In this document: positions 25,783 through 28,700 of the stretch, piece by piece | How the letters are laid out: each line of letters opens with the position of its first letter | How positions within the stretch are numbered: position 1 is the first letter of the stretch | NCBI GenBank assembly: GCA_963693365.1 | Contig: CAVNZM010000004.1 | Span: 8,767,968-8,831,967, forward strand | Length of the DNA stretch: 64,000 bases | Origin: Amoebidium appalachense | Taxonomy: Eukaryota > Protista > Ichthyosporea | Direction: 5' to 3' | Translations under genes and position numbers: made by a program | The notes under the pieces: model-generated | Told to the model about the DNA's origin: nothing | Seen by the model: the letters and a program-made list of their open reading frames with translations, nothing else | Databases searched by the model: none

Positions 25783-28700
25783 TCACCTTGCTTTAAGTCC
25801 CGGATTCAGCCCAGTAACATTTTGCATCGTGTCCCTCAAAAACTTGTTCCCAACCCCTCCAACCCCGAACGCAGGGCCTATGCGACATATGCGCGCCGCC
25901 GTCGATTTCACATACTCGCGTTTTAAAAACGCCATGCGATTGAATAGGCTCACGCCCTTGTTGTTGTAGAAGTCCAGGCCCAGTAGGTGGAGGGGGGTCG
26001 ATACAAATTGCACGGCCATAGGGCATGTGAGCTGGGCGAGTGTGTCGGCACGACCTGAAAATTGCGACGGGGGGGGGGGGGGGGGGGGGGGGGGGGGGGT
26101 TAGTATACAGGTGCGTGTGTGCGTGGGCGCGCGCGCACGTGTGTGAGTTTCGGGGAGAAGGGGAGGGGCGGCATGGTGGGTATAGGCGCAAATGACACAT
26201 TCCGAGTGGACAACACAATGCAGAAGGTGCAGAAATGCAACGTTGCCAAGATGAGTTGCAAAGCGCAAACAAAATCATCCATCATCAACAAAGCAGACTC
26301 TCAGGGGGGGGGGGGGGGGGGGGGGAAGACATCATCTATGGCCCTTTTCGCACGCACGCACGCACGGGGGGGGGGGGGGGGGGGGGGGGGGGGGAGGGAA
26401 GACATCATCTATGGCCCTTTTCGCACGCACGCACGCACGCATGGGGGGGGGGGGGAGGGGGGGGGGGGGGGAGGGCTTACTAGTGCCCAAGAGAGAGAGT
26501 AAGTGAGAGTAAGAGGGTGTGCGTGTGTGTGTGTGTGTGTGTGTGTGGGGGGGGGGGGGGGGGGGGGGGGGGGGGGGGGGAGAGAGAAGGAGAGAAGAAG
26601 GGAGGGAGGGAGGGAGGGAGGGAGGGAGAGAGAGAGAAGAGAGAGAGAGTGTGTGTTTGTGTATGGAACGATGAGGAGAAGGGAGAAGGGGGGGAGGCGA
26701 GGAGCAGAGGGGGCCAGATAGGGCGAGGCAGAGGGAGATGGGGAAAGGAGTGAGAGAGGGAGCAAGGGAGGGAGAAGGAGAAAGGCAAGATGGCCAGGAA
26801 AGAGGGAGAAGGAGAAAAGTGCACAAACACACACACACAAAAAAAGAAAGGAAAAAGACAAAACAACGGGGAAAATAACACCACCACCACCAACAACATC
26901 AAAGAAGAGAAACAAAAAAACAGCAGAGAACAAGACACCAACAAGAAACACAAAACGGCCGAATACTCAGGCACAAGGGACAACGGGCATAGAAAACAGA
27001 GGTGCAAGAGCTCAATGAAGAAGTGAAATGGTGCAGACAGAAGGTGTGTGTGTGTGTGTGTGTGTGTGTGTGGGGGGGGGGGGGGGGGGGGGGGGAGGGG
27101 GGATGGGGGGGAAGGGGGGGGAGGAGAAGCGAGAAAGAAAGGCCGGGGGGGGGGGGGGGGGGGGGGGGGGGGGAGGGAGAGAGAGAGAGAAGAGAGAGAG
27201 AGAGAAAGAGAGAGAGAGAGGGAGCAGAAAGAGAGAGAGAGAGAGAGGGAGAGAGAGAGAGAGAGAGGGAGGGAGGGAGAGAGAGAGTGTGTGTGAAGAG
27301 ATAAAGAGAGAGAGTGATTGGAAAGGGGGGAGGGGGGGGGGGGGTTTGAATGCGTCAAAAAGTACGAAGTACACAAGAACAAACGGATAACACGATGCAG
27401 AATGCAAGCCATACATAAAGAGGATGCATAATAAGCAGAGCCCATCCTCAGGGGGGGCCCACGTCATCCACAGTACCCGAGTTTCGACCTATTCCCCTCG
27501 TTAACGAAACCCAACTCAGATACTGTTTCACTTGAACATGAGTAGTTCACCCGTCTTGATCAGAGACGAGCAGGGTTGCTTATGCAGGCAAGGGCAGTGG
27601 GAAAGGCCGGGGGTTAAAGTTGCAGCAGTAAGCAGAAGCAAGAAAAATATAGATAGGAACTCAGGAGACGGGGCTTCTAGGAAGCTCCCCCGTCGATACC
27701 TAAGTCGATACTTCCCTGGCTAACATACTACACCAGCTGAAAAGAATTAAGTCCCGAAGGCCGCAGAATTCGCAATCAGAGGGGAAAATATGAGATTTGA
27801 CCCACGCCGCAGGGTAGTAACACGCTTACTAGGGCGGAACTTTATCGTCTTCGAACGGAAAGCTATGCCCCCGGATGTCAGCCGGAAATATGGTATCACC
27901 CATTGCTTTGGGCTTGAAAAAAGCCAAACCGATAGTCCGAGTTATGTTACGCCGGCGGGTAACATGCCGCATGGGTTCCAAGGGAGCTGTCGCCAACAGA
28001 GCGGTGTGTGCATGCGTGCGCGTAACGCAATGTGTGAAGTGTGGGGGGGAAGAGGGAAGGAGGTGCAGGGTCTGAAAGCAGGAAACATCAGAAGACAAAC
28101 AAAAAGCCAGACGAAATTGATGTGCCCGGGGGGGGGGGATAGCTTTACAGTAATCACAAGGCCCAGGTGATCCCATGGCTGTGTGTGAGAGAGAGAGTGG
28201 TGGTGGTGGTGGTGGTGGTGGGGGGGGGGGGGGGAGAAGAAGAAGGGAAGGCCCATGGGGAAAGGGGTATCGGGAGTAAAAAGACATCAGACCAAAGGCA
28301 AGAGGGAAGGCCAAGGGAAGGGGCAAGGGGAAACGGGGGGGAGGGGGGGGGGGGGGAGAGAGAGAGAGAGAGAGAGAGAGAGAGAGAGAGAGCGAGAGAG
28401 AGAAAAGAGAGAAAAGGGCAGGGGGGAGGGCGGAGAGCCGGACAGCCGGTGTGTGTGTGTGTGTGTGTGTGTGCGTGTCCGTGCGCGCCTGCCTGTGTGT
28501 GTGTACGTGGTGGTGGTGTGGTCCGGGGAAAAAGGTGGTTGTGTTGGGTGGGTAGGGTGGGAGGGAGAAGCGCGAGGGAGGGGGGGGGGGAGAGAGAGAG
28601 AGAGAGAGGGGGGGGGGGGGGGGGGGGAGGAAGAGAAAGAGAGAGCAAGGGGGACGAGAGGAGAAAGAGGGAGGGAGGGAGGGAGGAAGGGAGAGAGAGC

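Follow-up and report, generated by a model that had tools for sequence, protein, structure and literature searches.

Penelope-like elements (PLEs) of the Naiad and Chlamys clades are the described retroelements that come closest to the repeat family reported here. In the portions of Craig et al. (2021; PMC8557442) on which we draw, Naiads and most Chlamys elements are without a canonical hammerhead ribozyme, with eight families marked HHR_half_core; the authors leave open why the two clades thrive without the hammerhead of other PLEs, and the "half cores" stay unexplained. Naiads are described there as restricted to animals and as preferring (TA)n targets, and (C)n is the target in 13 of 36 among the Chlamys rows listed. 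A recent retrozyme preprint (10.64898/2026.07.22.740005) uses Naiad, in the part consulted, as a clade name only.

Hammerheads whose conserved blocks stand in a non-circular order are a second point of comparison. According to the sections of Eckert et al. (2023; PMC10085705) used here, the sources of type-SGC and type-CSG hammerheads (HRIMA-1) are metatranscriptomes or metagenomes, and no genome of a known organism is among them; type CSG is so far represented by two metagenome sequences, and block C was assumed to be unsplittable. A third comparison is with the Athena and Coprina PLEs, which lack an endonuclease (EN) and which resemble our family in having a C-rich RNA end beside a hammerhead and in priming on G-rich DNA; however, they are restricted to telomeres and telomeric repeats and carry canonical hammerheads, whereas our family is interstitial and intronic and sits in pure G/C runs.

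Here, we analyze a family of repeats in Amoebidium, a unicellular relative of animals (Ichthyosporea). We consider it probable, at about 70%, that these repeats are 5′-truncated 3′ ends of a Naiad/Chlamys-clade PLE lodged in poly(G:C) and carrying a predicted self-cleaving permuted hammerhead. In the literature searched, mostly open papers, we found no description of the split-core fold in retroelements, nor of PLEs in Amoebidium, and "Penelope" has no match in the text and supplements, figure S2 aside, of the Amoebidium genome paper (PMC11244446).

Results

The repeats lie in a 64,000-nt stretch of the A. appalachense genome (contig CAVNZM010000004.1; hereafter, the window), from an assembly given in the consulted part of PMC11244446 as 202 Mb, with transposable elements making up about half. 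A preceding sequence-only reading had listed about 18 copies. Self-BLAST and nhmmer, the latter with a profile built from 14 of the 18, recover 16 of them at E < 1e-4 (3,630 bp, or 5.7% of the window); the stretch at 42987-43020 reaches only E = 0.74 with nhmmer and is unsupported as a copy, and that at 38739-38778 matches the family neither in self-BLAST nor with the nhmmer profile. Were the window typical, 16 copies per 64 kb would extrapolate to ∼50,000 genome copies.

Three subfamilies can be told apart, here with copies named by their first position: A (27345 and 1-427), B (2287, 2701, 30947, and 17134), and C (43272). The longest copy, 27345..28042 on the minus strand, belongs to A, is 5′ truncated, and lies in sense orientation within intron 3 of a host gene; the other A copy, 1..427 (minus), is cut by the window edge, has a G21 run at its 5′ junction, and differs from 27607-28033 at 2 of 427 sites. 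Subfamily B includes 2287..2671 (minus) and 30947..31287 (minus, host intron 2), both with the complete fold described below, as well as 2701..2943 (minus; self-BLAST), truncated within hairpin V of that fold, and 17134..17303 (plus; self-BLAST and nhmmer), which begins in the 3′ strand of stem III. The C copy, 43272..43662 (plus), again has the complete fold. The 2287 copy is the middle member of a head-to-tail triple with 2701 and with an old A-like copy that begins at block G (2124..2262, minus; nhmmer); G-runs lie between the members, which possibly arose in separate events.

The other copies are shorter or older. B-like are a short 3′ fragment with a variant end at 499..600 (minus) and a short fragment with block C at 13727..13835 (plus), and A-like is a short 3′ fragment at 30073..30178 (minus, host intron 2), all three found by both self-BLAST and nhmmer. 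By nhmmer we find short, old 3′ fragments at 5711..5800 (minus) and 31456..31540 (minus, host intron 2), a very short one at 16500..16545 (plus; E = 5e-5), and two old copies on the plus strand, 41075..41255, which begins a few nucleotides downstream of the predicted cut, and 41687..41803, which begins at block C. In public data, the 27345 copy is found in contigs of 20 of the 24 listed runs, from 7 studies, and two runs place 11,609 and 12,504 contigs on it, numbers that give contig depth and not copy number. A family-specific motif finds nothing in the viral or metagenome contigs searched. Tandem joints of the family occur in X1 contigs; one family variant has, at the X1 joint 27484-27474, a 29-nt insert of telomere-like short repeats.

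We then compared the element ends with what had been claimed for them. The 3′ end is indeed fixed, being identical in six young copies, with contig depth that begins abruptly at 27345; in the copies at 499, 2124, and 13727, the 3′ end is a variant one or is a little shorter. The 5′ ends vary as stated, and contig depth falls from 27345 toward 28040. Position 28042, the boundary listed for the longest copy, is not the 5′ end of the element: X9 and X13 contigs (X13 being an RNA run by guess only) extend 64 and 130 nt past it, so the longest copy in the window is itself truncated. In a comparison for empty alleles on the right flank of this copy, X8 and X12 give no coverage, X16 covers only the far end, and the X11 contig stops 7 letters past the junction.

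The association with G/C runs is likewise borne out: with boundaries that are those of the sequence-only reading for old copies and coincide with BLAST ends for young ones, the 12 nt next to the element contain at least 8 G at 13 of the 15 3′ junctions and at 13 of the 16 5′ junctions, compared with 2.1% of background positions (2000 of 95,199). At the 27345 copy, a G13 run (27332..27344, plus), the putative primer strand, forms the 3′ junction, and a G7 run (28043..28049, plus) forms the 5′ junction, at a place where the family has non-G sequence. The constant 3′ end, the scattered 5′ ends, and the G-runs on either side together support the proposal of a retroposon copied by target-primed reverse transcription (TPRT) and are in keeping with the G strand as the probable primer. 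The companion claim of a poly(C) tail is not confirmed by a run-length comparison at the junctions, and we rejected it in favor of reading the C-run as the target site. The 3′-side run is the longer one in only 7 of 12 copies, a comparison that excludes four copies whose junctions both lack a clean run or whose 3′ end is outside the window; it is 2–4 nt long in two young copies (G2 and G4), and at one X1 joint a 3′ end abuts a truncated copy directly, with no G-run. Because the 3′ run is not consistently the longer and this joint lacks a run, insertion into existing tracts is favored. The window as a whole contains 175 G/C runs of at least 8 nt (median 18, total 3,493 bp), and the regional strand skew of its G/C runs reaches +0.71.

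The statements that the copies have no ORF and no terminal inverted repeats (TIRs) also hold, in that none of the 43 ORFs scanned among 110 has a Pfam match to a reverse transcriptase (RT) or EN and no TIR is present in any of the three long copies. Rfam gives no match at gathering thresholds, hammerhead included, and four at chance level (E 0.84–8.6); at 27762-27850 (minus), there is a chance-level match to the CPEB3 (HDV-like) ribozyme (E = 1.7), whose P2 partner is not evident. A reading of the GAAA block as a tRNA T-arm/B-box was dropped, its stem not being conserved across subfamilies.

What the sequence-only account omitted is a predicted hammerhead-ribozyme fold, ∼110–135 nt from the 3′ end, in four copies from all three subfamilies. 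Three conserved blocks follow one another on the C-ending strand, the cleavage site, GAAA, and CUGANGA, that is, in the non-circular order S-G-C, which is seen with a conserved core in 4 of 4 complete copies; since both the ribozyme cores and the G-U pairs lie on this strand, the claimed orientation, with the C-ending strand as the RNA, is upheld. The core is split. The strand that precedes GAAA has its partner upstream, directly 3′ of a conserved hairpin V, so that one strand of stem II is supplied from upstream via two inserted helices; in stem IV, the 3 nt ahead of hairpin V pair with bases after CUGANGA. The two extra helices are inserted at A9/G10.1, where the chain is opened, and a sixth helix, stem VI, connects the linkers that flank stem III. 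An earlier model of our own, a plain type-SGC hammerhead in which stem II uses the strand right after CUGAGGA, paired poorly at several positions and was replaced.

In the 27345 copy, the fold occupies 27441..27574 (minus), with the 5′ strand IV′ of stem IV at 27574-27572, hairpin V at 27571-27549, and the stem II strand from 27548; stem III is formed by 27526-27514 with 27482-27470, the predicted cut falls between 27513 and 27512, GAAA comes after 27486, CUGAGGA is at 27451-27445, and the second strand of stem IV is at 27443-27441. At 27546, stem II contains a mismatch private to this copy; the other base makes up ∼100% of the family contig depth there. The two complete B copies fold at 2535-2396 and 31210-31071, with predicted cuts after 2472 and 31147, and the C copy folds at 43401-43537, with a canonical CUGAUGA at 43527 and a predicted cut after 43462. 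In subfamilies A and C, a G/C-rich hairpin is found upstream of the fold (27671-27694 and 43291-43311), within surroundings that are dissimilar.

Several measurements speak for the fold, with the reservation that the helix descriptor was designed after the sequences had been seen. Stems I–V provide 29–31 bp in all four copies long enough for the fold, a number reached by 0, 0, 1, and 0 of 5,000 core-fixed shuffles of the four copies, and 100 block-shuffled windows contain no descriptor match. Across the four copies, 98.9% of the cells of stems I, III, IV, and V are paired, compared with 33–52% in slid controls; the count omits stems II and VI, as one copy is out of register in the alignment. 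Stem II shows compensatory differences among subfamilies, and stem III has three double changes, a covariation matched by 6 of 500 shuffles and informed by three subfamilies only. The IV–V segment is 87–90% identical between subfamilies, compared with 52–61% for the flanks. For stem VI, 6 and 2 of 2,000 shuffles do as well in the B copies, 252 in A, and 317 in C, making it significant in B only.

Other features speak against activity. The cleavage triplet is GUU, stem I has only 2–4 bp and stem IV 3 bp, CUGAGGA in A and B can be tied up by an alternative hairpin (−11.5 to −14 kcal/mol), and no step in the depth of Amoebidium contigs marks the predicted cut. The host gene, P0002, bears on the same question. 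Its four exons on the minus strand (33111-32845, 31937-31743, 29135-28995, and 26052-25786) were mapped with a 287-aa protein of Amoebidium parasiticum (EukProt EP00123), which a 55-aa exon fragment matches at 100%; the one exon scanned has no Pfam match. Introns 2 and 3 hold four copies of the element, all in sense orientation and two of them with the complete fold. That a spliced product exists despite these two copies counts against ribozyme activity, and, given their sense orientation, cleavage within the introns would have to be slow or tolerated.

To place the fold among known systems, we turned to the supplement of PMC8557442, where motif searches, read by eye and thus short of a full screen of its 54 families, show that the 3′ ends of Naiad_Amil, Aacu, Anas, Plae, Obim, and Ovul have six helices wired as in Amoebidium, and that Naiad_Parc, Smim, and Ppac (Ppac by file order) have an unsplit C-S-G order. 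We infer from these sequences that the split fold is a circular permutation of C-S-G, opened at A9/G10.1. The Naiads share with our family the split-core fold near a fixed 3′ end, very short truncated copies, and a high copy number; the Naiad cut site is GUA, as opposed to GUU in Amoebidium, and stems I and IV are longer in the Naiads. Type-SGC and type-CSG hammerheads, as far as PMC10085705 was consulted, are like the family in having all core nucleotides in a non-circular order, and a helix joins the distal ends of their stems I and II, with stem VI as its putative Amoebidium counterpart; there, however, CUGANGA lies within 2 nt of stem II, whereas two helices intervene in Amoebidium. The fold is not strict type SGC, because block C is split.

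In the consulted parts of PMC8557442, Chlamys PLEs and the non-autonomous elements that accompany them, such as MRC1, resemble the Amoebidium family in their (C)n target and 5′ truncation, and perhaps in head-to-tail insertions; Chlamys elements also do so in a short C-run at the consensus end (4 of the 5 (C)n-family ends viewed in the supplement have one) and in the lack of a canonical hammerhead; none of the five (C)n ends viewed contains CUGANGA. The differences are in the hosts, which are green algae, spike mosses, and slime molds for Chlamys and a holozoan for our family, and in the ORF, seen only in the Chlamys families, ours being known from non-coding copies. Measured against traits common to Naiads and Chlamys, the Amoebidium family has a 3′ end that is fixed and a 5′ end that is often truncated, the insertion bias toward simple repeats, and no canonical hammerhead (no Rfam match, non-circular order). 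At the protein level, the clade is marked by an ORF with GIY-YIG at the N terminus, a CxC motif, and an RT at the C terminus, and its Chlamys subclade by an EN devoid of the CCHH and linker zinc fingers. The (TA)n target and metazoan host of the Naiad subclade are not found, the family being in (C)n and in Amoebidium.

A pattern of the cores only, taken from the Naiad ends, matches at least 119 metagenome loci. Among these, the helix descriptor passes 16 of 72 loci in two repeat-rich assembly groups, 10 of the 16 also having helices IV and V, and 0 of 47 singletons; the failures in the two groups are mostly 5′ truncated or cut by a contig edge. Within the same set, 22 near-complete copies have 92% of cells paired, double changes between the two metagenome families occur in stems I, IV, and VI, and stem VI is significant. 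One locus, L022, has a broken RT C terminus upstream of the fold. This remnant has no match in the Amoebidium window (best E = 0.55), and both of its homologs, P0030 and P0025, have the RT motifs together with CxC and DKA, P0030 also having a GIY-YIG at its N terminus; their Pfam matches fall below curated cut-offs. Of 41 uncensored 5′ ends in the larger metagenome family, 27 fall at −9 to +3 relative to the predicted cut, 2 at +4 to +40, and 12 beyond, in a search that is blind to ends further downstream; the 14 ends of the smaller family (6, 1, and 7 in the same bins) pile up more weakly. Such a pile-up is what the copying of cleaved RNA would leave.

Discussion

The best reading of the element, judging from its sequence, is a truncated or non-autonomous Naiad/Chlamys-clade PLE that was probably copied by TPRT into poly(G). 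Neither an RT nor an endonuclease ORF came to light in the Amoebidium window, and PLE membership is therefore assigned by RNA architecture and not by protein or primary sequence. We propose that a trans-acting GIY-YIG/RT protein of the Naiad/Chlamys type would nick the G strand of a (G)n tract; read-through into the C-run at the donor site would add a few C to the RNA 3′ end, which would pair with the freed 3′-OH of the G-run and allow TPRT. Synthesis would stop variably and the 5′ end would be sealed into that run, so that G/C flanks the copy on either side. The ribozyme would cut ∼165–190 nt from the 3′ end and process tandem or read-through transcripts, with the cut products held together by stems II, III, IV, and VI. 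Because these stems bridge the cut, the products would stay paired, and the RT could either start at the 3′ product, yielding short copies, or cross the nick, yielding long ones.

The sequence-only interpretation had gone in this direction: the TPRT retroposon, the orientation, and the pointer to Penelope-like elements, whose Naiad representatives have 3′ ends that match the RNA fold, are all supported, and the supposed novelty of the poly(C) target fails. Its telomerase-like, EN-free version, in which the C-rich end of a PLE-derived RNA would prime on G-rich 3′ ends at spontaneous breaks, seems improbable to us. The 175 G/C runs per 64 kb could supply such breaks (e.g., through fork stalling at G-quadruplexes), G-rich overhangs do serve as primers for EN-minus PLEs, and Chlamys itself includes PLE-X families that lack the EN (PMC8557442, in the part used). 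However, the copies are interstitial or intronic, the 3′ RNA matches that of Naiads with GIY-YIG proteins, some targets have only 4–7 G, and EN-plus Chlamys elements already reach (C)n (PMC8557442, same part); a telomeric placement with reverse-complement telomere repeats is not seen, the copies lying in introns and between genes.

Slightly less probable still is a SINE-like or LINE 3′ family mobilized by a non-PLE enzyme, with a hammerhead fold that arose independently or is non-catalytic (e.g., protein binding). The weak GUU site and short stem I would suit this explanation, as would the missing protein link in Amoebidium and a depth plateau to ∼28030 that suggests a defined element of ∼0.8 kb; yet the six-helix wiring is identical to that of Naiad ends, there is no poly(A) and no discernible target-site duplication, and ARAGORN finds no tRNA head in the window copies, beyond which the true 5′ end lies. 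One-ended truncation occurs in rolling-circle elements too, but a DNA element (one-ended Helitron-like, or TIR/MITE fragments) or a homopolymer assembly artifact is very unlikely given the absence of TIRs and of a CTRR end or A/T target at the element ends, the strand-specific G-U pairing, and the recovery of the element from contigs of 20 runs in 7 studies.

Returning to the Naiad/Chlamys-type PLE, we advance tentatively, and with somewhat less than even confidence, the stronger proposal that Amoebidium harbors the first non-animal Naiad-type lineage, intermediate between Naiads, through its 3′ RNA, and Chlamys, through its (C)n target, with an active hammerhead of unpublished topology whose cut products stay tethered and let the RT cross the nick. 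If true, this hammerhead would supply the ribozyme that seemed "missing" from the Naiad clade, and the clade would predate animals or have been transferred from an arthropod host. The earlier remark that no element is known to be anchored to poly(C) is refuted by the published (C)n-targeting Chlamys PLEs (PMC8557442). Poly(C) targeting as such is therefore already known, and what is new is a non-animal host with a (C)n target together with the predicted permuted ribozyme. On our reading, Naiad-type elements would extend outside animals and a poly(G)-targeting retroelement would be added in a holozoan. With many natural variants in a culturable, sequenced protist, the points left open by Craig et al. 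and by Eckert et al. both become testable by cleavage assay.

Some further features of the window may be recorded. An F-box and leucine-rich-repeat gene region (Pfam) lies at 10957-12453 (plus), an AMPK CBM-like exon near 50830-51009, and local direct repeats at 62534-63260 and 23780-24013, in AT-richer sequence and unrelated to the family. Dimerization sites are a feature of PLE hammerheads. The linker that separates stem I from stem II in subfamilies A and B (27497-27508 and 2452-2468, minus) contains a 10-nt self-complementary palindrome, which, by analogy, is possibly such a site.
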